A stretch of DNA of 32,000 nucleotides from Pseudoalteromonas translucida KMM 520. Its GTDB lineage: Bacteria > Pseudomonadota > Gammaproteobacteria > Enterobacterales > Alteromonadaceae. The position numbers were made by a program, and so were the translations under genes. Location of the stretch: positions 1,980,001 to 2,012,000 of the forward strand of contig NZ_CP011034.1 of NCBI RefSeq assembly GCF_001465295.1. Reading direction: 5' to 3'. The stretch's first letter is position 1; each line of letters begins with the position of its first letter. The notes below the pieces were generated by a model, which searched no databases, was not told the DNA's origin, and saw only the letters and a program-made list of their open reading frames with translations. This document shows positions 1 through 16,595 of the stretch, in pieces.

Positions 1-346
1 CATTGATTTTTTCAAAAGAACTTCTTGAAGCTAAATATTTTGAAAACAAAGGTTCATACACTTTCTTTTCAAAGGTTTCGTCGGTGTAACCAATATCTTC
101 TAAATTACTCGATAATGACTTAAACGTATCTTCACACCAATTGCATACCTGTGCAGTTCGAATAATATGAATAGCAATTTGCTCAACTGCCATCCATTGT
201 GTTAGAAATGCCTGAGTATGATGCCCCTGCTTTTGCAATCCATTTACTTCGACTTCAATATTTACGATTAAATCATTGCCACTTTTAAGTTTTTGTAATA
301 ACCGTCTTTTAACATTAGCGTCGCTAGTCAACCTTGGAGGTGCCAT
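1..346 (-). CDS. hypothetical protein, N-terminal 115 codons only (runs off the left edge); next gene of the BREX operon after pglX'
   Basis: Hand translation of the minus strand from ATG (346-344) gives MAPPRLTSDANVKRRLLQKLKSGNDLIVNIEVEVNGLQKQGHHTQAFLTQWMAVEQIAIHIIRTAQVCNWCEDTFKSL...SSFEKIN, with no stop down to position 2. The start lies 1 nt after the pglX' stop (348-350). No family recognised, and I cannot say whether this is pglZ. Confidence 0.55.
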   Translation of the reverse strand, partial: MAPPRLTSDANVKRRLLQKLKSGNDLIVNIEVEVNGLQKQGHHTQAFLTQWMAVEQIAIHIIRTAQVCNWCEDTFKSLSSNLEDIGYTDETFEKKVYEPLFSKYLASRSSFEKIN

Positions 347-347
347 A

Positions 348-3300
348 TTAATTCACCACCTTTCCGTGGATGGCTTTTACATCGCTCAGTAAATTGCCAA
401 ATTTGCCGTAGTTAACTTTTACCCCGTCGTCGAGGTCGAGAGTAATACGTTTTTCAGCGAAGTGTTTGAGTTGTTCATCAAAAGAGCGAAGTTCGGCTTG
501 TTTTCCCCCAAGTGACTTTAAGTCTTTTTCGATAGTACGTGCTTCCGTGCCTGTGGCTTGTAGTTGTTGCTCAGATAACAAATTATATTGAGCTTCGTAT
601 GCACCAATCAGCGGTATAAGATACTCAGTACGCATACGCGACAAAGTGCTTTCGTTATAGCGATGCATATAGACTAAACACTCAAAGGCTTTTTCTTTTC
701 CTGAGCTAAATAACCAGTATATTGGCTTTCTTGCATACTTAGTGACATGTTCTTTAAAAAATTGAGTTGATAAGTATCTTCTAAGAGTATTTTCTGCTGA
801 CTCAGCCTTCTTAGGATTAATTGCATTAAGTATCAAGCTATCAGCAATGAAATTAATATTTTGGTTTAAGCTCTCAGCTCCCCAAACACTTTTTACAAAC
901 TCAACTACCCTGCCTGTTGCATCATCTTCATATACCCAAGAATCCTCTGCTAACGGCACAATTGCATCATCATCCGGCTGAAAGCTTGAGTACATTCCCT
1001 TGTTTAATACCGATTTAAACTGACTAACGTCTTGGTTTGCAAAAACCACCCCGTCACCGGTATAACTAAATCGACCCATTATGCAGCCTACAATATAACT
1101 TATTAAACTAACCACGGTATCCGATCTAAAAGTATTAAGCACCTTCGCTTTATAAGCATCAGGTTCGCTTTCGTCTAAATTCGTACCAACAGTAAAGTAT
1201 GGGTTTTTATAGAAAGACAAATCAGATGCAGATATTACTACTCGCTCATTTGCGTCAATTTGATAGCTTTCATCTACATGCTCATTTAAGCTTTGCTCCA
1301 GCGAGCTAATATAATTAACAAATTGATGTGTATCAGATTCAATCGTTAAAAAGTCATCTGCTATCAATGTCGAACTTGCCTTAAGATGTTCAAGCATAAT
1401 AGGATGGCTGCCAAACGCTATTGATGTTTCTACGCTATGCCAGTCTTCTTTTGAACACTCAACAAGTTGCTCCACAGTATCTGCAATAGCTGCTTTTTCA
1501 TCATCAACAATAGGTAACACGGCTAAATCATTTGGTCTTATTGAGCCTAAAACCCCTTCTGGATACACCGTTTTGACTAAACGGTTAAACATTGAAGAGT
1601 TTAACAAACCCAACTGAAACAACCTTGTTTGCTCATCAGTAATATTTTCACTTGGGGCAAAGCAAGGGCCTGACGCATCATAAATAGCGTCAGATGGTAC
1701 TTCTCGAGCATTAAACGTCGGCGCCAAAGCGGTCCAAGAGTTAACTTTGCTTTCTAATTGTTGATTAAGTTGACCAATTTCAGATTCCTTCGTATTTACA
1801 TAGCCATTAATGTTTCCATACCAACGCCTATACTCTCCACCTGAAATTATGGGCTTCCAACTGCCTTGTTCGCTATCTAAATCATGATTATTTAGCTCCC
1901 ACCACTGCCTAACATATTTATCACGGTCAATGTTTTTACCTGCTGGCAGTGTTGCCACACTAGACTTAAAAGGCTGCCCCAACGAAAATGCATTCTGTAA
2001 ACCTTCTGATGCCCAATACGATAACGGTTTAGTTGGAACGTTTGACATTTTCGCTAACGAGTTGCACACATTGCGTGAATTATCACAAGGAAAGCTTTTT
2101 GGTCTAGGCAAAATGTATTGCTCTTCTAATGTATCAGAGCTTTCGTCTATTTGTTTATCAATGATATCCGCATTGCTTGTAAAGCAATATCTCGCTTCAA
2201 AGCTTGGTAGGTGGCTATTTCTGATCACTACAGCATTCATTTGGTGTTGGTCAGGTATAACCCCACGGCCTAAATGAGCCAGACTGCATATTGAGTGTTT
2301 ATCAAATAAAATGTCTCGCATTTTTTCGTATCGAGACATAAACATCCAGCTATCTTTTAAAATCAAAGATGTGAAGCCATCAGGCTTAAGTAAATCTAAC
2401 GTTCTACTAAAAAACATCGTCGCCAAATTACTCTTAGTTGCAGCAAAGTCTTTTTTAGCAGCTTCTTTTAAATTAATTAACGACTCATCAGCCCCTAGTA
2501 TCCCTAAATTAGGTGGGTAGGTCACTATGGCATCATATTTTTGTTCAAGTGCTTCCTTAATGGCAAAACTATTTTTACCATCACCAATTTGCTCTGGCGA
2601 TGCTATTGCACCTAGCCCATTAGCATCAGATAGCAGCAATACATTAGGTTGGTAACCTCTTGTTAAAAAAAGTCTATCTTGTTCAGCAGATCGTAATACC
2701 AAGGTAAGGGACGATATTTGAATTGCTCGTTCATCAATATCAAAGCCCACAAGGTTATGCTCAAAAATTTCTTGCGGGATATCCCGTGCTCTAAACCCTT
2801 TTTCGAGATAAATATTCACTAAAATGTCGTACGCGAGTAACAGATTTCTTCCAGAGCCACACGCAGCATCTAAAACTTTTAATTCGCGAAGGTCATAGCT
2901 AGGTGTTGTCGCAATATTAGTAATATGCTGGTTAACTTCATCTGGTTGCTCAGCATCAGGCAAAAAATATTCCAAAGAGCTAGCAATCGTTGAATCAGGA
3001 AATAACTCAAGCCATCGTCTAGCCAAAGTATTTTCTACCATATATTGGCTGACCCACTTTGGCTCTGTCGTTTGGGTGGCTTTTGCTAGTTCCTTAATAC
3101 CTGTTTTTTTTGGTAATTCTTTTTTTATATCGGCGTAATAAGCAGAAAACAACTGATTAAACACATCAATAGTCTGCCAAAATGATTCATCTAAGCCATC
3201 TACAACAAAACGAACAATAGATTTAGTCCGCGTTAAATCAGATGGCAATAGTTCATTAACCCAGCGAGTGTCTTCACCAAATAACTTATTAATTCCCTGA

Positions 3301-3695
3301 GCGAGTTGTTCACATTGACCAAGTAACGCCATTCTAAATAGCTTTTCGTCGTGAGTTCCCTCTAAAACTAACTCTATCACCTGAGATTTGTCTAAATTAA
3401 AGTCGTCCGTTAGCTCTTCTAGGTTTTCTACAATTTGAAACGCGCTTGTTTGCAATGGGTGTGATAAAACCCTAAAACCGTGCGGTAACTTATCATTGAG
3501 CTCAAGGTATCTAATAGCGCATAAGCGGTTAAACCATGTATAGGCAGCTTGCTCTACAACTTCCTCTTCCCCAAACTTATTGATTTTTGCAATCAAATCG
3601 TCGCTCTTATCAATTAAGTTTAGCTGTGACTCAATTGCAGCTTTAAATAAAACTCGTGCTTCTAGTGCATATTTTTTTATTAATTTTAGTTCCAT
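348..3695 (-). CDS. PglX-family (BREX) N6-adenine methyltransferase paralog with a degenerate catalytic motif IV (YPPN instead of NPPY); probably catalytically impaired
   Basis: 1115-aa ORF. The N-terminus (AYTWFNRLCAIRYLELNDKLPHGFRVLS), the SAM motif I (KVLDAACGSG) and the last ~125 aa (PIYWLFSSGKEKAFECLVY.HRYNE.TLSRMRTEY...LDLDDGVK.NYGKFGNLL.DVKAIHGK) are collinear with the neighbouring PglX. Motif IV reads AIVTYPPNLG (YPPN = 2508-2519). Confidence 0.8.
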   Translation of the reverse strand: MELKLIKKYALEARVLFKAAIESQLNLIDKSDDLIAKINKFGEEEVVEQAAYTWFNRLCAIRYLELNDKLPHGFRVLSHPLQTSAFQIVENLEELTDDFNLDKSQVIELVLEGTHDEKLFRMALLGQCEQLAQGINKLFGEDTRWVNELLPSDLTRTKSIVRFVVDGLDESFWQTIDVFNQLFSAYYADIKKELPKKTGIKELAKATQTTEPKWVSQYMVENTLARRWLELFPDSTIASSLEYFLPDAEQPDEVNQHITNIATTPSYDLRELKVLDAACGSGRNLLLAYDILVNIYLEKGFRARDIPQEIFEHNLVGFDIDERAIQISSLTLVLRSAEQDRLFLTRGYQPNVLLLSDANGLGAIASPEQIGDGKNSFAIKEALEQKYDAIVTYPPNLGILGADESLINLKEAAKKDFAATKSNLATMFFSRTLDLLKPDGFTSLILKDSWMFMSRYEKMRDILFDKHSICSLAHLGRGVIPDQHQMNAVVIRNSHLPSFEARYCFTSNADIIDKQIDESSDTLEEQYILPRPKSFPCDNSRNVCNSLAKMSNVPTKPLSYWASEGLQNAFSLGQPFKSSVATLPAGKNIDRDKYVRQWWELNNHDLDSEQGSWKPIISGGEYRRWYGNINGYVNTKESEIGQLNQQLESKVNSWTALAPTFNAREVPSDAIYDASGPCFAPSENITDEQTRLFQLGLLNSSMFNRLVKTVYPEGVLGSIRPNDLAVLPIVDDEKAAIADTVEQLVECSKEDWHSVETSIAFGSHPIMLEHLKASSTLIADDFLTIESDTHQFVNYISSLEQSLNEHVDESYQIDANERVVISASDLSFYKNPYFTVGTNLDESEPDAYKAKVLNTFRSDTVVSLISYIVGCIMGRFSYTGDGVVFANQDVSQFKSVLNKGMYSSFQPDDDAIVPLAEDSWVYEDDATGRVVEFVKSVWGAESLNQNINFIADSLILNAINPKKAESAENTLRRYLSTQFFKEHVTKYARKPIYWLFSSGKEKAFECLVYMHRYNESTLSRMRTEYLIPLIGAYEAQYNLLSEQQLQATGTEARTIEKDLKSLGGKQAELRSFDEQLKHFAEKRITLDLDDGVKVNYGKFGNLLSDVKAIHGKVVN
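351..730 (-). repeat. direct repeat copy A: 3' end of pglX', roughly 80% identical by eye to 4162-4541
   Basis: By-eye alignment finds long identical runs, e.g. cctttccgtggatggcttttacatc, gtacgcatacgcgaca and cctgagctaaataaccagta. Weaker homology continues about 1 kb into both genes. Boundaries are approximate. Confidence 0.8.
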
Positions 3696-4157
3696 TTACT
3701 TATTTCCCTTTAAGCTAATTAGTTCATGGTGAACTTTCCAAAAGTCAGCGGCCTTAAATAGTCCAAATAGCTTTATTTGATTCGAAAAGCGGTGTTCAAA
3801 AACATACCAATTTATTTTTCCAAACTTAACTTTCTTTATATCAGCATGACCCGCAACATTTCTTATATGGTAAAAATAACTTTTCAGAATATTATTTTTG
3901 GCATTATGAAAATGTATTACGTTTTTGCTCTCAATATTAAGGTTTAAGTCAAACGTATAAAACTCAGCTTTAATTAAATCTAAGTTTCCATGAGGTATTA
4001 AATCGAATGCATACTGCTCTTTTAAACGCTTGTAAGCTTTACTTGAGCGAATATTAAAGCGCTGATTAAGCAAGTCACCATTTTCCCATAAAAGAATTAG
4101 CCGCTCGTAAAAGTCGGCTAATTCTTTACGGGTAAAATGCTGCGGATTGCAGTTCAC
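3696..4157 (-). CDS. small (153 aa) protein embedded between two pglX genes; candidate minimal HEPN-domain RNase (RNxxxH motif)
   Basis: The ORF abuts both neighbours: its stop directly adjoins the pglX' start, and its start is 1 nt from the pglX stop. Sequence YFYHIRNVAGHADIKK contains R99-N-V-A-G-H104 (3846-3863). This matches the HEPN Rx4-6H signature with the common N after R, located in the C-terminal half of a ~150-aa protein. Function is inferred from motif and context only. Confidence 0.5.
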   Translation of the reverse strand: MNCNPQHFTRKELADFYERLILLWENGDLLNQRFNIRSSKAYKRLKEQYAFDLIPHGNLDLIKAEFYTFDLNLNIESKNVIHFHNAKNNILKSYFYHIRNVAGHADIKKVKFGKINWYVFEHRFSNQIKLFGLFKAADFWKVHHELISLKGNK

Positions 4158-4158
4158 G

Positions 4159-7100
4159 TTACTTCACCGCCTTTCCGTGGATGGCTTTTACATCAGCTAA
4201 TAGGTTGCCGAATTTTCCGTAGTTGGCTTTTACGCCGTCGTCTAGGTCAAGCGTAATGCGCATTTCGGCGTAGTGCTTTAACTGCTCATCGAAAGCGCGC
4301 AGTTCGGCTTGTTTTTTCTCAAGCGACTTTAAGTCTTTTTCAATACCACGAGATTCTGTGCCTGTGGCTTGCAGTTGTTGCTCGGAAAGGAGTGTATGCT
4401 GAGCCTCGTATTTACCCATTAGAGGCGTAACGTACTCGGTACGCATACGCGACAGCGTACCTTCGTTATAGCGGTGCAGATAAACTAAGCATTCAAAGGC
4501 TTTTTCTTTACCTGAGCTAAATAACCAGTAGATAGGGCGTTTTTTGTAGGTCTTGCAATGATCTTTAAAGAATTGCGTTGAGAAATAACGACGAACGGTA
4601 TCCATCGCACTTTCGCCCTTCTTAGGCTTCAATGCATGTAAACATAAAGTTTCAGCTACAAATTCTAGGTTTTCCGATAAGTGTTCGACACCCCAGACTT
4701 TTTTTACAAATTCTTTAAAGCGAGATGTTGCATCGTCGTCAAACAACCATTCTTCTGAGGCTAGTGGAATAATACTGTCATCGTCGGCAGTGAATGACTT
4801 GTAAACTCCGCCTGTTAGAAGGTCTTTAAAACCTTTATTACCAGAGCGTGCGTAAACTAACCCATGCATATCAAGAGAGTAGCGTCCCATCATGCAACCT
4901 AGACAGTATGACAGAAGTTCGCATAATGTATCTGAGCTAAAAATACTGGCGACACTCTCTTTTTCTTTTACATTAGAGTATCTATATTGAGCATTTGCCA
5001 GCAATGTAATATCGGAAATTTCTTTTTGAGTAGATACATCATCTACCCCCAATAACTGCTCTGAGTGAGCATCTATCTCAGTCTCTAATTCTAGTAATAA
5101 TTCTGCGCGACTATGCGACGAAATAAAATAATTCGACATAGATTCAGACAACAATTTGCCCGAACTCTTTTCAACCAATGGAGAAACTTTGAAGTCAGGT
5201 GATGTTTCAAATAAATTAAAATCTTCACGAGATATATCTATAGCTTGGTCAGCAAATGTTTTAAGTTTTTTGTCACTATAAACAGCGTCAGGTACTGGTA
5301 TTTTTGAAATGTGCCCACTCTGAAAGTCAAGAGTTGCAGACAAAACCTTTAGAAAGCTTGTCACAATTCCTGAGTTTAAATATCCTAGTAAGCTTGATAT
5401 ATCCCCGTCTTTAAAAATACAGGGGCCTGTAGAATCAAAAATAAAGCCTTCTTCAAAATAACGAAAAGAAGGTTTAATTCCAATACGCGTCCAATTTATT
5501 CCTTCTTTGAAAAAGTTTTTTGAATTTCTTAAGTTTGATTTAGGAAAAGATTTTAACTCTTTGCCGTCTTCATCCCAGTTAATTACAAACTCTCTATTCC
5601 CATACCAACGTTTAACACCACCACCTTTTAGGTACGGAACCCACTTTACGGAGCTTTCTATTTCAAACCATGCTCTGAGAAATTTTTCGTTATCCCCAGT
5701 ATCTATTCCTTTTCCAGCACTTGCGCTTAGAGATAAGGGTTTGAATCGTTCGAAACTGTCCCTTAAGCTATCACTAAGCCAATAAGCAATTGGACTTCCG
5801 CTAATTTTTTCAAATTCGTTGTTATTTACAAAGTGAGTTCTTTCATTTTTACTAGATGTAAATAAAACTCCTTTATCCGCAGACTGTGACCCACTATTTA
5901 GATCAATATAACTCCCCAAATAATTAGGAATGTGGTGATTTGAGAACGTTAAGCAGCTTCCCAGAGCAATTTTTGAATTCAAAGAAGGAAAGCTATTAAA
6001 CCCTATATGATTGATGTTCAGTAACGTAGATTTTGTCAACAATTTCTTTCTAAACTCATCAAATGACGACAAAAACATCCATCCTTGAATTGTGATAAAG
6101 GAGGCGACTCCAGTTTTTGCTAATTGTTTTTTTGCAGCTATGACAAAACAACTATATAAGTCTGATTTTGCTTCAGAATAGTTTTTGGATACGTATGCTT
6201 TCAACTCTTTATTCATGCCATTACTGCCCATGTATGGAGGGTTAGCAATAATGCAATCATAGTTTTGAGCTAGCGCTATAGATTGACATATTAAAGGAAA
6301 CAGTATCATTGACGCTTGCTTGCCAGCAGGATCAGGCCCTTGGATTTTATTTTTCAGCTCAGCTTTAAGTGCCAAAAGGTTATTTATCAATTGATGATCG
6401 ATATCTATAAGAGAGCCACGTGTTTTTGCTTGTAAAAAGGACGACTTTAGGGCTTGCAGTAGTTCAAAATAGTCTTTGTAAATACTTGTTGGTTGAATAA
6501 ACTCTTCAGGTGTATCAAACAAGCCTCTTGTGACACCTGCTTGTTGATTACCTTCTAAATCCAAAGCCTTCCATAATTTCGTAATATCAAGGTGTTCAGT
6601 AGATTGCAGCGAGAATACGTTTAATGATACTTCACCATCTTCAACTCGTTGAAAGATGCGCCTGTCGTCTTCACGCGCTTTCATCATTAATGCAAAACCA
6701 GCAAGCTGCGCCGCCCGATCATCAATATCTAAACCATAAATGTTCTTGGTAAGGATTAGTTCGGGTATTTCACGAAGGCGGTAACCACGTTCAAGATAGA
6801 TTTCACGCAATACTTCATATACTTCAACTAAAATATGACCTGAGCCACAGGCAGGGTCGAGCACTTTAATTTCTTCTGGGTCTATACTGGTTGGCGTTAT
6901 AGCTTTTAGCTGTTCAATAACATCTTCAGACTGCTCAGCAGGTTCAATGTAATATTCCATTTTGCCTTTAAGCTCTGAGTCTGGGTAAGTGGCTAACCAT
7001 TGCCTACCCACAGAGTTTTGTACTAGGTATTTGACAATCCAGTTTGGCGTAAATAGCTGAGTGGCTGCTGGAATGTCTTCTGACTTAACGACTTTACCGA

Positions 7101-7821
7101 TAACAGCGTCTTTATGCTCTGAAATGTAAAACTGATATAGCCAACCGATAACTTCAATTTCTTGCCAGTCTTCCTCTGGGATATCGTTGATTAACCCTTT
7201 TAGGATAGAATCTGTTTTAGTCAGGTTATTAGGTAACAATAACTCTGTTGCATCATCAATCGCCTCAAACGCTAAGCCTTTAAAGATCTGAGGCATAATT
7301 TTAGCTAATTGATGACATTGGCCTAATAGCAATTCACGATACAGCTCTTCTTCTTTATCACCGGCTAGTTGCAACTCAATAATATGGTCTTTATCTAAAT
7401 TTAAACTTTCAGCTACATCGGATGCATGATTTAAGATTTCAGGTAGGCTATCGGCATTACTAAGATGGCTCTTTACAGGGGAAAGCACACGAAAACCATG
7501 ATCAAAGTAGTCATGTATTTCCATATAACGCAGTGCTGCGAGGCGATTAAACCATGTATAGGCCATTTCACGGGTGAACATATCGTACTTTTCTTGGTAG
7601 GTCGCAGACGCACGTTCAGCAATTTTGCTTTCTAAACGCTTACGTTGCTCACCTTCTTTGCGAGTAAAAGCACGGCCTTCGATTATGGCAGCCCCGCCTT
7701 CAATGCGAACTTCTGCTATTCGGTCTTCATATATACCAAAGTGAGCAGCACGCTTTCTAATGGCTTCAATAAATTGTTTACGCGCTTTAGGTGCGTATGC
7801 TTTTAAGTTTTTAGTGTTCAT
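4159..7821 (-). CDS. pglX: BREX type 1 N6-adenine DNA methyltransferase PglX
   Basis: 1220-aa ORF directly downstream of brxC. Motif I is KVLDPACGSGHILV and motif IV is CIIANPPYMGS (NPPY = 6232-6243). PglX-typical GWLYQFYISEHKD and ATQLFTPNWIVKYLVQNS are present. Size and position fit pglX. Confidence 0.9.
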   Translation of the reverse strand: MNTKNLKAYAPKARKQFIEAIRKRAAHFGIYEDRIAEVRIEGGAAIIEGRAFTRKEGEQRKRLESKIAERASATYQEKYDMFTREMAYTWFNRLAALRYMEIHDYFDHGFRVLSPVKSHLSNADSLPEILNHASDVAESLNLDKDHIIELQLAGDKEEELYRELLLGQCHQLAKIMPQIFKGLAFEAIDDATELLLPNNLTKTDSILKGLINDIPEEDWQEIEVIGWLYQFYISEHKDAVIGKVVKSEDIPAATQLFTPNWIVKYLVQNSVGRQWLATYPDSELKGKMEYYIEPAEQSEDVIEQLKAITPTSIDPEEIKVLDPACGSGHILVEVYEVLREIYLERGYRLREIPELILTKNIYGLDIDDRAAQLAGFALMMKAREDDRRIFQRVEDGEVSLNVFSLQSTEHLDITKLWKALDLEGNQQAGVTRGLFDTPEEFIQPTSIYKDYFELLQALKSSFLQAKTRGSLIDIDHQLINNLLALKAELKNKIQGPDPAGKQASMILFPLICQSIALAQNYDCIIANPPYMGSNGMNKELKAYVSKNYSEAKSDLYSCFVIAAKKQLAKTGVASFITIQGWMFLSSFDEFRKKLLTKSTLLNINHIGFNSFPSLNSKIALGSCLTFSNHHIPNYLGSYIDLNSGSQSADKGVLFTSSKNERTHFVNNNEFEKISGSPIAYWLSDSLRDSFERFKPLSLSASAGKGIDTGDNEKFLRAWFEIESSVKWVPYLKGGGVKRWYGNREFVINWDEDGKELKSFPKSNLRNSKNFFKEGINWTRIGIKPSFRYFEEGFIFDSTGPCIFKDGDISSLLGYLNSGIVTSFLKVLSATLDFQSGHISKIPVPDAVYSDKKLKTFADQAIDISREDFNLFETSPDFKVSPLVEKSSGKLLSESMSNYFISSHSRAELLLELETEIDAHSEQLLGVDDVSTQKEISDITLLANAQYRYSNVKEKESVASIFSSDTLCELLSYCLGCMMGRYSLDMHGLVYARSGNKGFKDLLTGGVYKSFTADDDSIIPLASEEWLFDDDATSRFKEFVKKVWGVEHLSENLEFVAETLCLHALKPKKGESAMDTVRRYFSTQFFKDHCKTYKKRPIYWLFSSGKEKAFECLVYLHRYNEGTLSRMRTEYVTPLMGKYEAQHTLLSEQQLQATGTESRGIEKDLKSLEKKQAELRAFDEQLKHYAEMRITLDLDDGVKANYGKFGNLLADVKAIHGKAVK
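4162..4541 (-). repeat. direct repeat copy B: 3' end of pglX
   Basis: See copy A. Both copies have the same orientation (direct, not inverted). A second shorter shared block lies at the 5' ends (ttaaaccatgtataggc at about 3527-3543 and about 7547-7563). Confidence 0.8.
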
Positions 7822-7846
7822 ATTTCACCTTAAATGTCATCCGTGA

Positions 7847-10800
7847 TTATCTGATACGCACTTTATTGTTGCTATTAACTAATGTCGTTAGTTTTGCTTT
7901 TAGTGCTGATAAGTAGTCCTCAATATCTTGCTCGGTTTCTATCACACCAGCGGCATTTACCTCTCGCATCACACTTGAGGTATCAACAGAAACTATTTTT
8001 TTCGGTGTTGGTTTTGCTACTTTTTTTGGCTCAGTTTTTGTTGGTTTGTAGTTACCACTTTCTGAGTCTATACCTGAAGCTGATGCTGGTTCGGGGGCTT
8101 GTTTAGCCTTTTGTGCTACTTCTTTGGCTTTTTGCTCTGCGAGTGCTTGCTGTTGTTCAATGAACTTATTGATTAGTTCGTAGGCATCTTCTTCAAGTGT
8201 GGCAGCTTCAGTGATCTCTTGATGTATTTCAGCAATTCCTTGCAGTGTATCAACACGCTTTTTAGCATTTTGTAGTGGGTAAAGCGCTTTATTGCTAATA
8301 TCGCTGTTTACCGCGCCAGCGGCTTTAATTTGCTCAGTTACATGCTCGATACGAATATCGATTCTTGCCTTTGCATGAGTGCGCTTTTCAGTTAACAAAG
8401 CCTCGTTAACTTTGTTTACACTTTCAATAAGCGGTTCTACTTCGCGTATGTCACGGTACGGGCGCTCTTTATTAAAAATAGATTCTAACTTTTGCAGCGC
8501 TGCTATCGCATTTTCCTCTTTTTCGAGTGCTATGCGGTTGCGGTCAAAGTCGATAGTGAGTGCTTTGTACAACTTTTGCCAAGTTGAAAATTGAGTTTCG
8601 TAGAAGTTTTCAAGATCTTGGTAGTCTTCTTCAAAATCAAGTAGCTCATCACCATTAGCGAGGAATGATTCAATAAACTGATAGCTTGATTGCGCTTCAA
8701 TTAAACCCGCCAGTAATACTCGGCCATTCTCAATATCTTTAACACCTGGGTAATGCCCCGTTGATGCTTTGTTTGCAAAGCCATCAAGCTTCTTTTTCAT
8801 GGTGCTTATATTAGTTTGAGCAATGTTGAACAGCTCTTTTTCACTGTCTGGAGCATTTTTACCAAACACGTTTTTAAACAATTTAGCCGCACGGTTTAAG
8901 TTAGCTTCAGACTGTTGTTTAATACGTCGAATACGAAGCTCTGCGCGCTTTCTAACTTGTGTTAGATTGTCGTATGCACTTTTTAAAGGGACTTCTTGTT
9001 GACGCATTTGAAAGCAAATTTTGTTAGCTAATGCTAAACGCGAAATGATTAAAATTATTTCTTCATCATTCCAACCAAATGGACGTTTTGAAAAGCGTTT
9101 TACAATGTCTTCTGCGGTAATTGCTCTGCCAGTGTCATCGCCAAGGGTTATGAACTTTTCTACTTCTAAAGACGCTAACGGATTTATTTCATCAGCGTTT
9201 AAATCGAGACCAATTTGACTAACATCGTCTGCAACTAAGGTATTTTGAATCTCGCGGCGAATATCACCTGGAAATGGTTTAACTAACTTTAATTTACTGA
9301 ATGTGTTTTCAATTACGTAGCGATAAAGCTCTTGAAGTATTGAGCTTACCGCTCCGCCTTTTGGATTTTGTTTAGAGCCTAATGCGTAAAATTCAGCATC
9401 TTTTAGTAGCTCCTCTACTTCTCCTATCAAGCGGCGATTTCGATCTTGGTTTTCTGTCGCTTTTTGATGAAGTAACTGTTGTTGTTCTGGGCGTTTACCA
9501 GAGTTGCCGCGTAAAAACTTACTTGTTCGAATAAACGTTTCGATGTCTCTGAATACTCTGTTATTTTCAGCCAACTTGATGATTATCGAGCCACTATCAC
9601 CGTCCATTGAACGATTAGCACATACGGTAGATGTATATTCATCGTAGTTGGGATCTCTAGGTGTGATCACTTTCACTACTAAGTCGTTTTCTTGAGAGCC
9701 ATCTCGTGGACTACCATTACAAAAACGGCTGATAGGGAAATCTTGCTTGTTTTCAGGGTAGCGATAGTTCGCTTCACGACGCAGCACATCATCAAAAATT
9801 AGATCGCTAATCTTCTTAGTTTGATCAGATAACTCTATTTCAGTTTTTTGAATTTCCTGCTCAATTTCTTTTTCTTCGTTAGTAAGGAAAATGTACTCGT
9901 CACCTTGGCGAGCGATAAGCATATTAAGCTCTAGAGCATTTAAAGCCTGTTCAATTTCGCGCCTTAACGCTAATCGGTCTTCATCGACTTTGCCTACACA
10001 CAGGGTAACTAAGTTATCTAACGTTGACTTAATTACATCGACATAACGAATTAAAAACAGGGTTTTTAATATATTCAGCGTAAACGGCGATATAGATTCT
10101 TTAACGGATGCTTGGTCGATATCTTTTTTAACCGATGTATCGAGGAAACTTTCGATAGCTGGGTAGAAAAAATATAACGGAATTAGAACTCCGACATTTT
10201 CATTTCGGACTTGTTTGGCAGCACTTTGGAATGCATCTAACAAAGATCGCTCACCACGGCTTAAATGTAAGCCTGTTGCACCCGCTTTACGAATAGCTTC
10301 AAATATTTTTTGAACTAAAATATAATGATAAGGTACAAATGGATAGCTATTAATAAAGCTACTTGCATCTTTATAGTTAGCTAACTCAGCGGTTGTTGTA
10401 CTGTCAAAAGCTAACTGGTTTCTTAGAATGTCACCCTTTTGATCATACAAGTCCTGGAGCTCAATACGAGCCGCCTCTTCTTTTGATAGCAGGCGTTTCT
10501 CTATCACCTCACTGGTGTTTGAGCTTGAAAGAGATAGGCGTTCAAATCGGCCTTGGATTTTTGAGAAATCATGACCTTTTGAGCCTGTCATTTGCCCAAT
10601 TACTGCATCGATGTCTTCTTGAGAAGTAACAACGACCCAAGCACGGCCTTCACAAATAGTACCGAGGTTTTCAGTGATTGTTTGAAGTTTCAGCATCATC
10701 TGGGCGTTGTTACCAATGAACTGCCCCACTTCATCCACAAAAAACAACACTCGGCGGTCTGAGCTTACATCTAGGTATTCTTTTACCCATTTACAAAAGT

Positions 10801-11536
10801 TGCTAACGTCTAACGTGAAGTTGTTTTCAAGTTGCTCAACCCACTGCCTTGCTGATTCAGTTGATTGATTAGTTACCTTACCAAGCGCATCTGCCATGTC
10901 GTCTCGGAAGAAGTCGTAAGCATCTCTTTCTTCTATCCAGTTAGCAGACGCTAACGCATTGAACTCTTTTTTGAACTGTTCAAATACACCTCGTTGGTCT
11001 AATTCGCGTTCAAGGTGCGCAATATGAGGGTGATCTCCACTGAAGCCCATTTGCTCGTTAAAAACTTTTAAGAACACTTTTAATATTGCATCATCGCCGT
11101 CATCTGTGTTGGCACGGCTGTCGATATTAAAAAGGATGACGGTATTATCTTTGGTAACCGCAGTGTCTATTTCACCTAATAAGAAGCCATCTAGGTTTTT
11201 ATCTTTGAAAAACTCGATAGCTGATTTATCAAACTCACCGTTTGTCGCTTGAATGTTTTGTAAAAGGTATGACAATATTTTGATGAAGTGAGATTTACCT
11301 GAACCAAAAAAGCCACTTACCCAGATCCCTAATTTACCTGATGCAGCTTTTGCTTTTGGATCACGCACTGAAGGCATATACGCATCGAAGAACTCTTCGA
11401 AGTGTTTTGCTAATTCGGTGGTGATTACATATTCATCTAGCTCGGTAAAAACAGTGCTGTTTTCTAATTGGTCAGCTTTTACAACACCATTAATTGGTCG
11501 GTTTATATCTTTAGTAAATAAGTCTTTAATTTGCAT
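7847..11536 (-). CDS. brxC: BREX ATPase BrxC (P-loop NTPase)
   Basis: 1229-aa ORF with Walker A GFFGSGKSHF and Walker B VLFFVDEVGQF. It lies between the two small brxA/brxB-sized genes and pglX. A lysine/proline-rich low-complexity linker sits near the C-terminus. Confidence 0.9.
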   Translation of the reverse strand: MQIKDLFTKDINRPINGVVKADQLENSTVFTELDEYVITTELAKHFEEFFDAYMPSVRDPKAKAASGKLGIWVSGFFGSGKSHFIKILSYLLQNIQATNGEFDKSAIEFFKDKNLDGFLLGEIDTAVTKDNTVILFNIDSRANTDDGDDAILKVFLKVFNEQMGFSGDHPHIAHLERELDQRGVFEQFKKEFNALASANWIEERDAYDFFRDDMADALGKVTNQSTESARQWVEQLENNFTLDVSNFCKWVKEYLDVSSDRRVLFFVDEVGQFIGNNAQMMLKLQTITENLGTICEGRAWVVVTSQEDIDAVIGQMTGSKGHDFSKIQGRFERLSLSSSNTSEVIEKRLLSKEEAARIELQDLYDQKGDILRNQLAFDSTTTAELANYKDASSFINSYPFVPYHYILVQKIFEAIRKAGATGLHLSRGERSLLDAFQSAAKQVRNENVGVLIPLYFFYPAIESFLDTSVKKDIDQASVKESISPFTLNILKTLFLIRYVDVIKSTLDNLVTLCVGKVDEDRLALRREIEQALNALELNMLIARQGDEYIFLTNEEKEIEQEIQKTEIELSDQTKKISDLIFDDVLRREANYRYPENKQDFPISRFCNGSPRDGSQENDLVVKVITPRDPNYDEYTSTVCANRSMDGDSGSIIIKLAENNRVFRDIETFIRTSKFLRGNSGKRPEQQQLLHQKATENQDRNRRLIGEVEELLKDAEFYALGSKQNPKGGAVSSILQELYRYVIENTFSKLKLVKPFPGDIRREIQNTLVADDVSQIGLDLNADEINPLASLEVEKFITLGDDTGRAITAEDIVKRFSKRPFGWNDEEIILIISRLALANKICFQMRQQEVPLKSAYDNLTQVRKRAELRIRRIKQQSEANLNRAAKLFKNVFGKNAPDSEKELFNIAQTNISTMKKKLDGFANKASTGHYPGVKDIENGRVLLAGLIEAQSSYQFIESFLANGDELLDFEEDYQDLENFYETQFSTWQKLYKALTIDFDRNRIALEKEENAIAALQKLESIFNKERPYRDIREVEPLIESVNKVNEALLTEKRTHAKARIDIRIEHVTEQIKAAGAVNSDISNKALYPLQNAKKRVDTLQGIAEIHQEITEAATLEEDAYELINKFIEQQQALAEQKAKEVAQKAKQAPEPASASGIDSESGNYKPTKTEPKKVAKPTPKKIVSVDTSSVMREVNAAGVIETEQDIEDYLSALKAKLTTLVNSNNKVRIR

Positions 11537-11571
11537 GTTATTTTATCCTTGTTGTTTGATTGCAAGTCCGT

Positions 11572-12177
11572 TTACGGTACTAGTTTAAATGCACGATAAT
11601 AGTTATTTGATTCGATTCTGCCAAAGGGTTTTAACGCTGTACCGTCGTACTCACCAGGATAGAAAAGTACCGTTGGTACGTTGCCTACCTTAGCATGTAG
11701 AGCGTTTAATAAGCCGTGGCCACGAATAATAGGCCACGCGCTCCCAAGCCCATGAAGTAAAATGAACTCAGTTTTGTTTTTTTCACAAGAGCCGAAGTCT
11801 ATTTTTGAGGCGATAAATTCAGCGACTCGGTTTTGCTCAAGAGGCCCCTTTAATGCGTTGAATAACGCGTCATCACCGCGCTCTTTTTGTACTTTAAATG
11901 CTCTTTCAGTAAGTTTGCGGGAATCGAGCAATTCAATAATGGCTTCAAACAAGTTGATGCTTTTAAAATTACGCCCACGTTTATCAAGGCGCTCTGTCAT
12001 GTATTCTAAATGCTCTCTTACAGTCAATTCTGACTCTGGTGGGTAGTCAAATACGTAAAAGCCAATCTCGTTTCCTAAACCTTGGTTTTTTAAAAAATCT
12101 TCGCTTTCAATCTTGGGCTGAATTTCATCAAGCCGCTCATGAAGTCGTTTTTGTTGTTTAGTTTTAAGCTCAACCAT
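11572..12177 (-). CDS. brxB: BREX protein BrxB (DUF1788-type), assigned mainly by size and synteny
   Basis: 201-aa ORF. Its start overlaps the brxA stop by 1 nt (TAATG), and it lies immediately upstream of brxC. Confidence 0.7.
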   Translation of the reverse strand: MVELKTKQQKRLHERLDEIQPKIESEDFLKNQGLGNEIGFYVFDYPPESELTVREHLEYMTERLDKRGRNFKSINLFEAIIELLDSRKLTERAFKVQKERGDDALFNALKGPLEQNRVAEFIASKIDFGSCEKNKTEFILLHGLGSAWPIIRGHGLLNALHAKVGNVPTVLFYPGEYDGTALKPFGRIESNNYYRAFKLVP

Positions 12178-12800
12178 TAGTGCAACTCCATCGCTGAAAT
12201 AATATCGTCTCTGTTGATCTCTAGAAGCAAGTCTCTCACTTCTGGTAACAAATATACATTTTGTATTTTTTTATTCCGTGTTGTTTCTATATAACCAGCG
12301 TCAGCTATGGTTTTAAAAGCTACTTGAGATATTTTGTAAGTCGATGATTGTGACATTTGAGCTAACTCAGGGAATAATCTAATGCGTTCATCCCAAAAAG
12401 ACTCCCAATCAGCTACATCTAAACTTTCACGGAACATACGTTTAGCATCTAACACTACATTGCGCATAAAATCAGCAAGTAATGTGCAGTTAATTAACGT
12501 AGCTGCAAACATTAACTGAGTTGATAGCTCAGTGCTACCAAATGCGATTAGTTCTAGGTATTTGTCTGACATATCTTCTAAACGCTTTTTGATAGTAGCC
12601 GCATTCCTCTTTGCTGAAGCGTCAGAGCGTTTTTGTAAAATATTTTGGTTTACAATGGCTTCTAACCACTCTTTTTGTGACGGTTTTTTAAGTAATAGCT
12701 CAGCGACTGTCTGACTTTCTTTGATCATTAAGCTGCCACCAATAAGGTCGCCAAGGTAGTCTTTGTATGAATTCATTTGTATTATGCTTGGAGTCGTCAT
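12177..12800 (-). CDS. brxA: BREX protein BrxA (DUF1819-type), assigned mainly by size and synteny
   Basis: 207-aa ORF. It is the first structural gene after the WYL regulator, abuts the brxR stop codon and overlaps brxB. Confidence 0.7.
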   Translation of the reverse strand: MTTPSIIQMNSYKDYLGDLIGGSLMIKESQTVAELLLKKPSQKEWLEAIVNQNILQKRSDASAKRNAATIKKRLEDMSDKYLELIAFGSTELSTQLMFAATLINCTLLADFMRNVVLDAKRMFRESLDVADWESFWDERIRLFPELAQMSQSSTYKISQVAFKTIADAGYIETTRNKKIQNVYLLPEVRDLLLEINRDDIISAMELH

Positions 12801-13688
12801 TTATAGTTCTTCCAATTCAGGCACATAACCAGGAGCAATTGCTAAGTTTTCTGCGCCGAAAAGGGTTTGACGGTTTTTGAGCCACAGTTGGTATTCAGCA
12901 CCAACAAGTTCTGCATCAGCGGTACAATCAACATTCCAACGTCTCAATAAATAACCAGCCATAGCAGCCCTCACATTCAGCGACAGTTTTCCTCCGTCCA
13001 TTCCATAGTCTAATGCGATTGCAGTAGGATGACTTACGTTATGGGGGTGAGGAACGAGTTGTAACGGCATCATGCGCATCCAATGGTGGTCGCTTATTTT
13101 GACTTCTAAAGGTTGTATCTCTGAATATTCTAATACGGCCTTTGTAATTCTAGTTAATACAAAATCCCGAAAACTGTTAGATTTACGATCATAAGCTCTC
13201 ACATGCCAGCGCAAACCATTATCGACGATACTGTGGGGAACGATATCTCTTTCTCCTGAGCCGCTACTTAGGGAGGTGTAAGTGATATTAACTGCTTTTT
13301 GATTAATTACTGCTTGAACCAACTTTGCGACAATAAAAATATCAGGAATATTTAACTGGCTTGGCGCTTCGACGGGGAATGTCGTATCGCCAATAGCATC
13401 AAAGCCATCGGTTATTTGGTTAGAAAGTTTTACAAGGGTTTTGCGAGGGTCATGTGTGAATAAGGGCCTAAAGCCCGCAGCTTGAAAATATCTCTTTTCT
13501 TTTGAGTCATATACCATATTTTCAGGGCACAACTCTTTATAGAGATTGATATCACGAGTAGCCGAGGTTAACCCTTTCTCGAAATAAGAAACTATTTCAG
13601 CTCTCGTAACATATCCAACAAAAAAAAGTTTAAAATCAATGTATGACAAACGTTGTTTTTGAGTAAAGCCAATATTGTTTAAATTCAT
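12801..13688 (-). CDS. brxR: WYL-domain transcriptional regulator, BrxR-like
   Basis: 295-aa ORF at the head of the BREX operon. The N-terminal region resembles a winged HTH (QRLSYIDFKLFFVGYVTRAEIVSYFEKGLTSATRDINLYKE). The central segment GLRWHVRAYDRKSNSFRDFVLTRI is typical of WYL domains. Size and position match BrxR-type regulators of BREX loci. Confidence 0.7.
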   Translation of the reverse strand: MNLNNIGFTQKQRLSYIDFKLFFVGYVTRAEIVSYFEKGLTSATRDINLYKELCPENMVYDSKEKRYFQAAGFRPLFTHDPRKTLVKLSNQITDGFDAIGDTTFPVEAPSQLNIPDIFIVAKLVQAVINQKAVNITYTSLSSGSGERDIVPHSIVDNGLRWHVRAYDRKSNSFRDFVLTRITKAVLEYSEIQPLEVKISDHHWMRMMPLQLVPHPHNVSHPTAIALDYGMDGGKLSLNVRAAMAGYLLRRWNVDCTADAELVGAEYQLWLKNRQTLFGAENLAIAPGYVPELEEL

Positions 13689-14256: not shown

Positions 14257-14508
14257 ATGATTAAAAATGAATTTACTTTGCTTTCTGCTAAAGAACTTTC
14301 AAGCTTTATTAAGTTCAGCCCAGATTACATTAACCGTAAGTTGAAAGACAATGTTTTTTTTGAGGGTGAGCATTACATTAGACCTTTTGGATCAAGAAAA
14401 ATACTTTACCTTTTAGAAAGTGTAATGGAAGAAATGTACAACACCACGTATAAAGCTGAGCGCGAATTTGTCATTCCTCTCGCAAGTGGAGGTGTATGTT
14501 ATGGCTAG
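14257..14508 (+). CDS. excisionase/AlpA-like small DNA-binding protein (recombination directionality factor candidate)
   Basis: 83-aa ORF immediately upstream of the integrase and overlapping it by 8 nt. LLSAKELSSFIKFSPDYINRKLKDNVFFEGEHYIRPFGSRKILY resembles the Xis/MerR-type HTH-plus-wing pattern. Confidence 0.55.
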   Translation: MIKNEFTLLSAKELSSFIKFSPDYINRKLKDNVFFEGEHYIRPFGSRKILYLLESVMEEMYNTTYKAEREFVIPLASGGVCYG

Positions 14509-15712
14509 TGTAAGAAGCCGAAACGATAAGTTGTTTTTTGATTTTTATTATCAAAATATACGATGTCGTGAGCAGACCTTACTCAAGGATACAAAAGCTA
14601 ATCGTATCAAACTTGAGAAAGTTCTAGAAAATATTGAAATTCAAATTATGCTCGATCGTTTTGTTTACCGAGATATGTTTCCGAATAGTAACCGCTGCAA
14701 GGCATTTAAACTGTTTGATGACCAGATAGAAGCTATAAAAGCTAATGAAACGAATAAAGCTGATGTTATTTTACAGAATGTACCTAACTTCGAGGCATTT
14801 GCTTATGAGTGGCTAGAAGAAAGTAAAATTCATTGGAAAATTAGTCATTTTAAAAATGTGTCTATGATCTTTGAGCGTTATTTAATTCCTGAATTTGGCA
14901 AGTTTAATCTTGATGAAATAAGCCGTGCTCATATTATTAAATATCGCGCGGGCATATTAGAGCCTAAGCGTAGTAGTAAAAAACAATTGAGTAATGATTG
15001 GATCAATCATGTTATGACACCTCTTAGAGGCATACTTAAAGAAGCGTCATTACGTTATGATTTTCAAACTCCTTTTAACAATATAAAACCACTAAAAGTA
15101 GTTAAAACCAAGATAGAACCTTTTTCACTCAATGAAGTTCAGCAATTTCTTAAGTATGTAAGAAGTGATTTTCGTAATTATTATACCGTTCGCTTTTTTA
15201 CTGCGATACGAACAGCAGAGATTGATGGCCTCAAGTGGGAATACGTTAACTTTGATCGAAATGAAATTACTATTCATGAAACCTTAGTTGATGGCAATGT
15301 TGAGACACCTAAAACAGCCACATCATATAGAAATATCCAGCTATCTAGAGTTGTTGTTGATGCATTAAAAACACAATTCAAAATAACTGGTAAGAACACT
15401 TATGTTTTTTGTAATAAAAAAGGTAACCCTCTTGATCATCGAAATATAACTAAAAGGGTATGGTATCCAACGCTAGAAGAGCTCTCTTTAAAGAGGAGAC
15501 GCCCTTATCAAACAAGACATACATGCGCAACCTTATGGCTTTCTGCTGGTGAAAATCCTGAATGGATAGCTAAACAAATGGGTCACAGCACGACTAAAAT
15601 GCTATTTGAAGTTTATAGCCGTTATGTTCCAAACAATACTCGACAAGATGGTAGTGCTTTTGATCGCCTACTTCTAAATGCCAACATTGAAGAAGAGGCT
15701 ACTTATGAATAA
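14501..15712 (+). CDS. int: tyrosine site-specific integrase with N-terminal arm-binding domain
   Basis: Start chosen at ATG 14501 (MASVRSRNDKLFFDFYYQNIRCRE, an arm-type DNA-binding domain pattern), preceded by GGAGG. Catalytic signature: AIRTAEIDGLKW (R), KTATSYRNIQL (K), TRHTCATLWL (R-H), MGHSTTKMLFEVYSRY (H, Y). Confidence 0.9.
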   Translation: MASVRSRNDKLFFDFYYQNIRCREQTLLKDTKANRIKLEKVLENIEIQIMLDRFVYRDMFPNSNRCKAFKLFDDQIEAIKANETNKADVILQNVPNFEAFAYEWLEESKIHWKISHFKNVSMIFERYLIPEFGKFNLDEISRAHIIKYRAGILEPKRSSKKQLSNDWINHVMTPLRGILKEASLRYDFQTPFNNIKPLKVVKTKIEPFSLNEVQQFLKYVRSDFRNYYTVRFFTAIRTAEIDGLKWEYVNFDRNEITIHETLVDGNVETPKTATSYRNIQLSRVVVDALKTQFKITGKNTYVFCNKKGNPLDHRNITKRVWYPTLEELSLKRRRPYQTRHTCATLWLSAGENPEWIAKQMGHSTTKMLFEVYSRYVPNNTRQDGSAFDRLLLNANIEEEATYE

Positions 15713-16562
15713 CTATATCTATGGTTGGTTAAAAAATTTACATATTAATGGTACTTTGCCAACAGCCAATTGTGAGCTATTGATAAGTAAGCAAATAATT
15801 TACGCTATTACATCTGCTGATATTGCTAGAAAATGCCAAATAGTGTCTGGCTTAGCTCAATTTCAGTTAACTCACGATATAATGGGTAATCATGTTGTTT
15901 GTGATATAGAGCCTATACTTTCTCAATGTAACGAACAGCAGTACCTTAATTTAACTTCGATGATAAATAATACAAATGAGCATTTAATAGCACGATTTTT
16001 TAAGCTGCTTAGCTTTGTCACATGCAGTGAGTTGCAGCCTTTTATTGATTTTATTTTAACTAAACAAAGCATTTTACAAAAATTCATACAAGCACCGGCT
16101 AGCCTAAACCACCATCACTCTTATACTCATGGATTGTTTGAGCACAGTATAGAGGTAGCTGAAATTGCATTTAATAATGCTAAACACTTAAATCATTCCA
16201 GTATTGAATGCCAAGCTGCATTAGTAGCTGGCTTATTTCACGATATTGGTAAAATATTTGTCATGCTACATCAAGCCAACGATCGCTACATACCAGGACC
16301 ACACGAAGGTTATAACTTTGCTATCTTAGCTGAACCTTTAGCGAAGCTAGGCAGTCGTAATAGGCAATTGCTGGAGTTATTAAGCAGTTTATTAGCAGCC
16401 AAGCCATCTGGCTATCAAGCGAGATATGCAATTGAGCATATTGTGCAACAAGCTGACCGATGCTCTTCTGAATCAGCTTTTATACATGCTAAATTTCAAG
16501 AGCTTCCTGATTATTACCATTTTTGTAAAGTTGGCGATAAAGTTCTTAAAAGAATGAGTTAA
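15705..16562 (+). CDS. HD-domain (metal-dependent phosphohydrolase superfamily) protein, translationally coupled to the integrase
   Basis: Start chosen at ATG 15705 (GAGG 6 nt upstream), with an 8-nt overlap of the int stop. Motifs HHHSYTHGLFEHSIEVAEIA and VAGLFHDIGK give the H...HD signature. Confidence 0.75.
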   Translation: MNNYIYGWLKNLHINGTLPTANCELLISKQIIYAITSADIARKCQIVSGLAQFQLTHDIMGNHVVCDIEPILSQCNEQQYLNLTSMINNTNEHLIARFFKLLSFVTCSELQPFIDFILTKQSILQKFIQAPASLNHHHSYTHGLFEHSIEVAEIAFNNAKHLNHSSIECQAALVAGLFHDIGKIFVMLHQANDRYIPGPHEGYNFAILAEPLAKLGSRNRQLLELLSSLLAAKPSGYQARYAIEHIVQQADRCSSESAFIHAKFQELPDYYHFCKVGDKVLKRMS

Positions 16563-16595
16563 CGTTTTAAAATACCTAAACTTAATTTGAAGCTA

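Follow-up and report, generated by a model that had tools for sequence, protein, structure and literature searches.

A 32,000-nucleotide stretch of Pseudoalteromonas translucida KMM 520 (assembly GCF_001465295.1, contig NZ_CP011034.1, forward-strand positions 1,980,001 to 2,012,000), hereafter the window, carries a type 1 BREX (bacteriophage exclusion) locus that fills positions 1-13688 on the minus strand according to Pfam and PADLOC. The locus follows the brxA-brxB-brxC-pglX-pglZ-brxL order of such operons, and the window holds brxR, brxA, brxB, brxC, a canonical pglX and a second, full-length pglX paralogue, designated pglX', in which the catalytic NPPY tetrapeptide is replaced by YPPN (Table 1). 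With PglX', the locus represents a rare form of type 1 BREX that has two PglX proteins. A single base separates the pglX stop codon from the GTG start of a gene for a 153-amino-acid (aa) protein, no base separates this gene from pglX', and a single base lies between the pglX' stop codon and the next gene, which starts with ATG at 346 and exits the window. The brxA, brxB and brxC products of L010, one of the loci fetched for comparison, were 97-99% identical to those of the window, and L010 continues after pglX' with a 198-aa gene, a helicase gene, pglZ and brxL, an arrangement that probably also lies beyond the window edge. Downstream pglZ and brxL were present in L010 as well as in L001, L002, L004, L006, L009 and L019.

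Membership of PglX' in the PglX family was established with PADLOC (match to PglX, E=6e-252), with HMMER against the solved BrxX/PglX proteins (8zek/9ewz/8c45; E=1e-215, in two stretches covering residues 24-358 and 383-1112) and with a Foldseek search of its structural model, which was matched over the full length, best by 8q56/8c45/9ewz at E values of 1e-49 to 1e-52. The N-terminal helical, gamma-class methyltransferase, recognition and C-terminal domains were all found in PglX', as in E. coli HS BrxX (9EWZ/8ZEK) and Salmonella PglX (8C45/8Q56), and like these it is encoded between brxC and pglZ and keeps motifs I-III, the adenine and ribose contacts to S-adenosylmethionine (SAM) and the C-terminal metal site. 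Unlike them, PglX' has YPPN at motif IV, TEP at motif X and a conserved recognition domain, and it is always additional to a canonical PglX. Since PglX' departs from the family in its catalytic motifs and in the variability of its recognition domain, we did not file it as a functional PglX methyltransferase. A 115-aa open reading frame (ORF) runs antisense within pglX' (1930-2277, plus strand) and is probably spurious.

In the canonical pglX of the window, motif IV is encoded on the minus strand at 6232-6243 as AACCCTCCATAC (AAC CCT CCA TAC; N527-P-P-Y530). BLASTP paired YDAIVTYPPNLG with YDCIIANPPYMG, setting YPPN in register with NPPY, and the same register was returned by a 23-sequence MAFFT alignment and by HMMER against the solved E. 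coli BrxX (YDAVVANPPYMG). An earlier annotation made from the letters of this DNA (the sequence-only reading) had placed YPPN opposite NPPY; its coordinates and codons proved exact, and its register held in all three alignments. The description of the tetrapeptide as "reversed" needed correction, in that the N-to-Y and Y-to-N replacements each correspond to one base change (AAC to TAC and TAC to AAT), with no rearrangement. Inversion of the DNA was ruled out as the source of YPPN, since its product would be IRWV and two point changes suffice. One finding that would have overturned the sequence-only reading is a working NPPY-like motif at another place in PglX'. None of the 17 proteins of the YPPN clade described below contains a further (D/N/S)PP(Y/F/W).

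To compare the active sites, the contacts described for E. coli BrxX (PMC11842806) were mapped onto PglX' through the HMMER alignment. Among the kept positions, Q208 corresponds to BrxX Q244, which contacts the SAM ribose, and D388 to D503, while BrxX I239 is a Leu in PglX'; also kept are the counterparts of I355, which stacks on the SAM adenine, and of L536/F540, which contact the adenine by stacking (PMC11842806). The glycine loop of motif I (G280-S-G282) and the acidic D319 of motif II were invariant in the clade, and the metal site of BrxX (D997, D999, I1001, D1012) is represented by D908, D910, I912 and D924/D925. Replaced, by contrast, were BrxX N508 by Tyr, Y511 by Asn, F246-T247 by Thr-Glu and D535 by Asn, so that in place of the (D/N/S)PP(Y/F/W) and (F/Y)TP motifs of a competent enzyme PglX' carries YPPN and TEP. 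The mapping thus points to a SAM pocket with its adenosine half intact and its methionine and target-base half remodelled. By alignment, different but likewise invariant residues stand in PglX' in place of NPPY of motif IV and FTP of motif X, the two elements needed to set the flipped adenine at the methyl group of SAM. The changes of GWLYQFY to NQLFSAYY (3135-3158) and of ATQLFTPNWIV to ATQTTEPKWVS, listed in the sequence-only reading, were both seen in the alignment, and the GxG loop, the C-terminal domain and the 1115-codon frame that it described as kept are indeed intact. In addition, PglX' lacks ~90-100 residues between motifs II/III and IV relative to PglX and BrxX, and its N-terminal domain is shortened relative to PglX.

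Among amino-methyltransferases, Asn or Asp at the first position of motif IV and an aromatic residue at the fourth are near-universal. Substitution of the aromatic residue in BrxX (Y511A) abolished DNA binding, methylation and defence altogether (PMC11842806), which makes the loss of ordinary N6-adenine methylation by PglX' a reasonable and, in our view, strongly supported deduction from the sequence. The expectation of the sequence-only reading that catalysis would be lost or strongly altered was therefore borne out as far as the absent canonical tetrapeptide and the dead Y511A mutant go, and for the absence of catalysis itself we infer it from the motifs.

A homologue search of 5.8 billion proteins showed that the altered motifs are shared by a clade. 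It returned 17 clusters matching PglX' over the full length (~1115-1164 aa) at 43-94% identity, whereas the identity of other PglX proteins among the matches listed fell to 33-40%. [Y/F]PPN was found in 17/17 clade members (YPPN in 16, FPPN in one), and NPPY in 103/103 other homologues among the matches listed, a division that far exceeds anything expected by chance. At 15 distinct loci, one of them from an HPPN sister lineage, the fourth position was Asn without exception (15/15) and the first was Tyr in 12, Phe in two and His in one, while the codons of the motif varied synonymously (TAT/TAC, CCA/CCG/CCT/CCC and AAT/AAC). E211, N396 and N423 were invariant in 18/18 sequences with a mean column identity of 61%. 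The altered motifs are thus clade-specific and invariant, and the term "eroded", applied to them in the sequence-only reading, had to be given up.

The clade is rare: clustering of 1.84 billion representatives at 50% identity left it with three clusters, and exact-pattern scans recovered it from 2/185,579 species genomes and from eight metagenome loci. Its members are mostly marine, several loci having been recovered from ocean metagenomes, and every source with a name belongs to the Gammaproteobacteria; the sources include Alteromonas halophila, Candidatus Reddybacter, metagenome-assembled genomes of Chromatiaceae and Alishewanella, and Tara contigs. Public annotation labels clade members "BREX-1 system adenine-specific DNA-methyltransferase PglX".

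The pglX' gene is under clear purifying selection, as the sequence-only reading had supposed. Nei-Gojobori ratios of nonsynonymous to synonymous divergence (dN/dS) were 0.135 between the window and L010 (dS 0.24), 0.128 between the window and L003 (dS 0.44), and 0.130 and 0.141 for two further pairs, the four pairs spanning dS 0.24-0.54. The lowest values of the protein, 0.04-0.10, fell in the methyltransferase-like segments, compared with 0.12-0.13 in the equivalent of the recognition domain. Reading frames were intact in orthologues down to 43% identity, as is the frame of 1115 codons in the window. Because the altered copy is maintained by selection, the most probable conclusion is that PglX' does something other than methylate DNA.

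We next compared the recognition domains by sliding identity over the seven loci at which both paralogues are intact. Canonical PglX showed 70-93% identity in the N-terminal half and only 20-35% in the recognition region, whereas PglX' showed 50-79% identity N-terminally and 57-78% in the recognition region; the recognition domain, the most variable part of PglX, is therefore not the most variable part of PglX'. The conservation of this domain in PglX' and its hypervariability in the neighbouring PglX indicate that PglX' is not the diversifying specificity factor, which contradicts a role as the variable specificity subunit of the system; a specificity subunit was among the roles offered in the sequence-only reading. 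Judged by this conservation, the target recognised by PglX' would be constant across loci. Between the window and L010, BrxC was 98% and PglX' 93% identical, but residues ~420-970 of PglX were only 26-50% identical between these two loci (window 4159-7821, L010:4861-8586) with flanks of 90-100%, as if the specificity region had been cleanly replaced as a cassette.

The C-terminal tail behaved differently from the rest of PglX'. The tail of PglX' was closer to that of the same-locus PglX than to those of distant PglX' proteins, with identities of 0.66 vs 0.49-0.53 in L002 and 0.81 vs 0.67-0.74 for other PglX' in L001, whereas in the methyltransferase-N region the paralogues were ~40% identical whichever loci were compared. 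The proportion of synonymous differences (pS) between the two tails of the window was 0.53-0.61, vs ~0.8 elsewhere, and recent gene conversion was ruled out as the cause of near-identical tails, as pS is still that high. This supports concerted evolution of older date, or else co-evolution of both tails with one common partner, as the source of tail tracking, and PglX and PglX' appear to share one putative, locus-specific docking surface. The tail repeats (window 351-845 and 4162-4656) are direct and ~3.8 kb apart, and could also mediate deletion of the 153-aa gene together with pglX'.

Table 1. Genes and sequence features of the BREX locus in the window; positions count from the first letter of the window.
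Feature	Position	Strand	Basis or remark
WYL regulator (BrxR-like)	12801-13688	-	Pfam, PADLOC
brxA	12177-12800	-	Pfam, PADLOC
brxB	11572-12177	-	Pfam, PADLOC
brxC	7847-11536	-	Pfam, PADLOC
Canonical pglX, 1220 aa	4159-7821	-	NPPY 6232-6243, GSG 6838-6846, QLFTP 7045-7059
153-aa gene between pglX and pglX'	3696-4157	-	ORF
pglX', 1115-aa full-length PglX paralogue	348-3695	-	ORF, translation, PADLOC, HMMER, Foldseek
Motif X position of PglX', QTTEP for QLFTP	3060-3074	-	Q208 kept, F-T replaced by T-E, E211 clade-invariant
Motif I of PglX', G280-S-G282 (SAM-binding loop), kept	2850-2858	-	Alignment
Motif II of PglX', D319-I320-D-E, kept	2730-2741	-	Equivalent to BrxX D354/I355
Motif IV position of PglX', Y393-P-P-N396 = TACCCACCTAAT (TAC CCA CCT AAT)	2508-2519	-	Replaces NPPY
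KSNLATMFF of PglX', L424 and F428 kept (BrxX L536/F540), N423 for BrxX D535	2409-2435	-	
Target-recognition-domain equivalent of PglX', residues ~501-760	1416-2195	-	Conserved among PglX' orthologues
PDDDAIVPLAEDSWVYEDD of PglX', equivalent of the BrxX C-terminal metal-binding site, kept	921-977	-	
C-terminal tail of PglX', last 165 aa, ~80% identical to the tail of same-locus PglX	351-845	-	
Following gene, 5' portion only (start codon ATG at 346)	1-346	-	Homologue of the 165/198-aa protein after pglX' in L003/L010

Every YPPN locus with upstream sequence available (L001/L008, L002, L003, L004, L006, L009, L010, L014, L015 and L019, plus the window) proved to belong to type 1 BREX and to have pglX' downstream of a canonical pglX with NPPY, which held for all 11 such loci fetched; wherever the contig extended far enough, pglZ-brxL came after pglX'. 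Among the fetched loci, we found no pglX' outside type 1 BREX and none lacking a canonical pglX where the upstream region was visible. Comparison of the window with L003 gave 89% aa identity and dS 0.44 for pglX' and only 80% aa identity with saturated dS for brxC, which suggests exchange between BREX loci of either brxC or the segment with pglX'.

The genes around pglX' were less constant. An SF2 (superfamily 2) helicase of 440-454 aa, which ends in a zinc ribbon and which one source labels RadD, is encoded in the pglX-pglZ interval of most loci with visible flanks, adjacent to pglX' or within two genes of it. In L001 and L006 the gene directly after pglX' encodes a TIR protein (Pfam TIR_2, E=3e-12), proteins with weak HEPN matches and an Rx4H motif flank pglX' in L002, L010 and L019, and GmrSD occurs in L013 and L014. 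The L010 homologue of the gene at window 1-346 itself has weak HEPN profile matches and RNELIH at its C-terminus. L002 and L017 have pglX' without the helicase or a downstream effector, and L018 has the 153-aa gene and the helicase without pglX'; the helicase was therefore ruled out as an obligate partner of PglX', each being found without the other. Overall, the pglX-pglZ interval is a hotspot for unrelated cargo, including GmrSD, reverse transcriptase, SbcCD, RmuC and Fic.

Several of these loci showed rearrangements of pglX itself. In L018 (4359-14635; Pseudoalteromonas sp. T1lg48), PglX is 93% identical to that of the window over the aligned region and is split by an apparent frameshift (272 + 955 aa), and the place of pglX' is taken by the 153-aa gene, the helicase gene and genes for two proteins of no known type (550 and 526 aa). 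In L009 (1839-8619), L019 (1-5999) and L014 (71-6487), pglX is split at the hinge between the methyltransferase and recognition domains into an N-half of 646 aa, where complete, and a C-half of 573-593 aa, resembling separate M-like and S-like subunits. A reverse-transcriptase gene of ~1010 aa lies between the halves in L009 and L019, and L014 has two alternative C-halves (593 and 558 aa).

The 153-aa protein encoded between pglX and pglX' belongs to a family of 16 homologue clusters, all unnamed, in which R99, N100 and H104 are invariant. Its R99-N-V-A-G-H104 segment fits the Rx4-6H pattern and is invariant in 15 homologues, and its AlphaFold2 (AF2) model, with a predicted local distance difference test score (pLDDT) of 84, is of mixed alpha/beta type with six strands. 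Searches gave no structural match in the PDB at E<0.1 and no Pfam, PADLOC or PDB-sequence match. Identification as a HEPN RNase was not adopted, since the Rx4H motif is present but the predicted fold is alpha/beta, not an all-alpha bundle, and no profile matched.

Next to the BREX regulator, window 14468-22210 encodes a tyrosine integrase, an HD/TraI_2-like protein, a 1035-aa protein with a weak integrase-domain match and an 845-aa protein without matches. The integrase and further recombinase-like genes at 14468-19703 make it probable that the BREX locus is located on an integrative island. Elsewhere in the window, a 145-aa ORF at 25706-26143 matched only positions 251-372 of the 383-position catalase profile and looks like a catalase fragment.

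A profile search identified three further second-PglX proteins in the same slot. P0241 (2007 aa, L020:10001-16024) has HPPN and lies in the order brxC-sbcD-sbcC-pglX(NPPY)-P0241-pglZ-brxL; P0263 (1960 aa, L022:1246-7128) has QLPS at motif IV, has lost the motif II Asp, and follows the C-terminus of pglX and a Fic gene before pglZ-brxL; and P0256 (1125 aa, L021:1492-4869) has RPPA at motif IV and is the last gene ahead of pglZ. At their N-termini, P0241 and P0263 are extended by ~860 aa, the two extensions being 41% identical to each other; that of P0241 contains repeated helix-hairpin-helix-like segments and a helix-turn-helix-like segment with no confident Pfam domain, and P0263 gave a weak helix-hairpin-helix profile match. 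With all three in the same slot, degenerate second PglX genes are a repeated occurrence between pglX and pglZ, and the YPPN clade is the version whose pocket residues stay tightly constrained.

Several known systems resemble this arrangement in part. METTL14, the partner of METTL3, has a degenerate motif IV, EPPL. In the METTL3-METTL14 writer of N6-methyladenosine (PMC5023411), an active enzyme stands beside a conserved paralogue that keeps the fold and serves substrate binding or scaffolding. That heterodimer is eukaryotic, acts on RNA and was shown experimentally, whereas the pairing of PglX with PglX' is putative, and PglX' differs from METTL14 in keeping most SAM adenosine contacts. With its fold kept, its motif lost, purifying selection and co-occurrence with an active paralogue, PglX' has the properties of a pseudoenzyme partner, and by analogy it may work most like one of the METTL14 kind, in a putative heterodimer.

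Type 1 BREX loci of Lactobacillus reportedly also hold a pair of pglX-like genes; Goldfarb and colleagues are reported to have described there in 2015 a duplicated pglX with a recombinase and to have proposed phase variation, the recombinase-associated segments swapping specificity. Unlike in those loci, pglX and pglX' are in direct orientation, deeply diverged (tail pS 0.53-0.61) and have no recombinase between them. The paradigm of a guard is PrrC, an anticodon nuclease whose gene resides within the type I restriction locus EcoprrI. Like PrrC, PglX' is an extra component within a restriction-modification-like operon that could act when a phage disables the main system; PrrC is, however, an unrelated nuclease and not a paralogue of the modification subunit, and a trigger or effector link of PglX' is putative.

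The type V BREX system of Haloarcula hispanica likewise has two PglX-family paralogues in one locus, BrxX1 and BrxX2, which are both required for defence, both active with a motif of their own, and 53% identical (bioRxiv 10.64898/2026.04.28.721311). PglX' is different in having no catalytic motif, only ~35-39% identity to PglX outside the tail, and a conserved recognition domain. The active pair of Haloarcula was the only precedent found in the literature searched, and we found no published description of the PglX' paralogue in that literature, including the structural papers and the 2026 survey of BREX diversity (PMC12839542).

Taken together, these results favour, at a probability of about 0.6, the reading of PglX' as a pseudo-methyltransferase, a conserved paralogue of PglX that does not methylate but docks into the BREX complex to recognise a fixed target. 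The sequence shows that pglX' is co-expressed with pglX from one tightly packed operon; tail tracking suggests that its product docks on BrxB/BrxC/PglZ via the same C-terminal interface as PglX; and the conserved recognition domain, together with the remodelled yet constrained base or ligand pocket, would bind one invariant DNA or DNA-like target without methylating it. The BREX complex would thereby gain a second, fixed sensing arm beside the fast-changing specificity of PglX.

Several points weigh against this reading. The loss of catalysis is deduced from motif knowledge, and the aromatic-P-P-Asn tetrapeptide is conserved more strictly than a dead site needs, which could reflect an unconventional active pocket. 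BrxX needs Y511 for any DNA binding, so that the Asn of PglX' might block binding unless Tyr393 compensates. The geometry of the catalytic half is unreliable, the AF2 model built from the 23-sequence alignment having pLDDT <50 for residues ~350-550 and its Foldseek matches bearing on the overall fold only, and the association of PglX' with PglX, BrxC or PglZ is putative. Finally, a DNA-binding arm without a cognate methylase would create a self-targeting problem unless its target were absent from host DNA. A DNA reader would avoid self-targeting in just this way if it recognised, for example, a base modification of phages. A more specific version, which we consider tentative and rather unlikely, is that the mirrored motif forms a working pocket and that PglX' is a base-flipping reader of a fixed DNA feature, without methylation; its target would be, for example, a phage-specific base modification that ordinary BREX cannot see.

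Of the other explanations, decay of a functionless duplicate is hardly credible and is contradicted by the selection analyses: loss of the catalytic motif and an N-terminal domain that is shortened and less well conserved relative to PglX would fit it, but the 1115-codon frame and those of orthologues down to 43% identity are intact, dN/dS is ~0.13, the replacement residues are invariant, and the variation in the Asn and both Pro codons of the motif is synonymous only. It is also improbable that PglX' is a second active methyltransferase with an unconventional motif and a fixed target of its own, comparable with the Haloarcula hispanica type V pair. The intact motifs I, II and III and SAM adenine and ribose contacts, the strict conservation of the mirrored aromatic/Asn pair and the lowest dN/dS of the protein in its methyltransferase-like domain all speak for such an enzyme, but we know of no amino-methyltransferase with aromatic-PP-Asn, a literature search for YPPN with methyltransferase returned nothing relevant, and the near-universal residues at positions 1 and 4 and the dead Y511A mutant of BrxX argue against it. 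An invariant Glu has in addition entered motif X, the element in contact with the methionine end of SAM; nothing is left of motif IV in sister lineages at this slot (RPPA, QLPS), one of which has lost the motif II Asp as well; and a conserved recognition domain is atypical of a BREX modification enzyme. The documented case of two active BrxX in one locus (bioRxiv 10.64898/2026.04.28.721311) does favour it.

Somewhat less doubtful, though still unlikely, is a guard or decoy function, in which PglX' would mimic PglX as bait for anti-BREX factors such as Ocr-like DNA mimics or SAM lyases and, once engaged, would trigger the neighbouring abortive-infection-type genes (TIR, HEPN-like, SF2 helicase). 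Ocr binds BrxX via the recognition and C-terminal domains (PMC11842806), both kept in PglX', and a conserved bait surface would fit the conserved recognition domain and pose no self-targeting problem. The TIR protein after pglX' in L001 and L006, the weak-HEPN, Rx4H proteins flanking it in L002, L010 and L019, and the RadD-like helicase in most pglX-pglZ intervals would supply candidate effectors, yet these neighbours are variable and separable (no helicase or effector in L002 and L017, no pglX' in L018), the interval is a general cargo hotspot, and the 153-aa protein of the window is unsupported as HEPN. The BrxX contacts with Ocr are only partly kept (K1048 to N, T1141 to R, R1145 to K), a mapping that is uninformative. 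The helicase also features in a further alternative, that PglX', the RadD-like helicase and small proteins form a separate accessory system lodging in BREX and acting independently. The shared interval, its nature as an insertion hotspot and the closer relationship of pglX' than of brxC between the window and L003 (89% vs 80% aa identity), suggestive of cassette-like exchange, are compatible with such a system; since pglX' is never found outside type 1 BREX, nor without canonical pglX where the upstream region is visible, since its tail tracks the resident PglX, and since pglX' occurs without the helicase (L002, L017) and the helicase without pglX' (L018), we regard it as quite unlikely.

One obstacle to understanding how BREX stops phage DNA is that the marking of self DNA and the sensing of non-self DNA both fall to PglX, which makes the two roles hard to separate genetically. 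The recurring degenerate second PglX genes (YPPN, HPPN and motif-less) are not mentioned in the 2026 BREX-diversity survey (PMC12839542), and their annotation as ordinary PglX methyltransferases would mislead the interpretation of methylomes. With its scaffold, SAM adenosine pocket and docking tail kept and its catalytic residues gone, PglX' could be a ready-made separation-of-function variant. It could reveal which PglX surfaces engage BrxB, BrxC and PglZ, and could show whether BREX acts without cognate methylation and whether BREX loci hold guards against anti-BREX proteins. If PglX' is indeed a base-flipping reader, it would represent a natural restriction-only, modification-independent sensing arm of BREX, in which sensing and methylating, fused in PglX, have been separated in nature.

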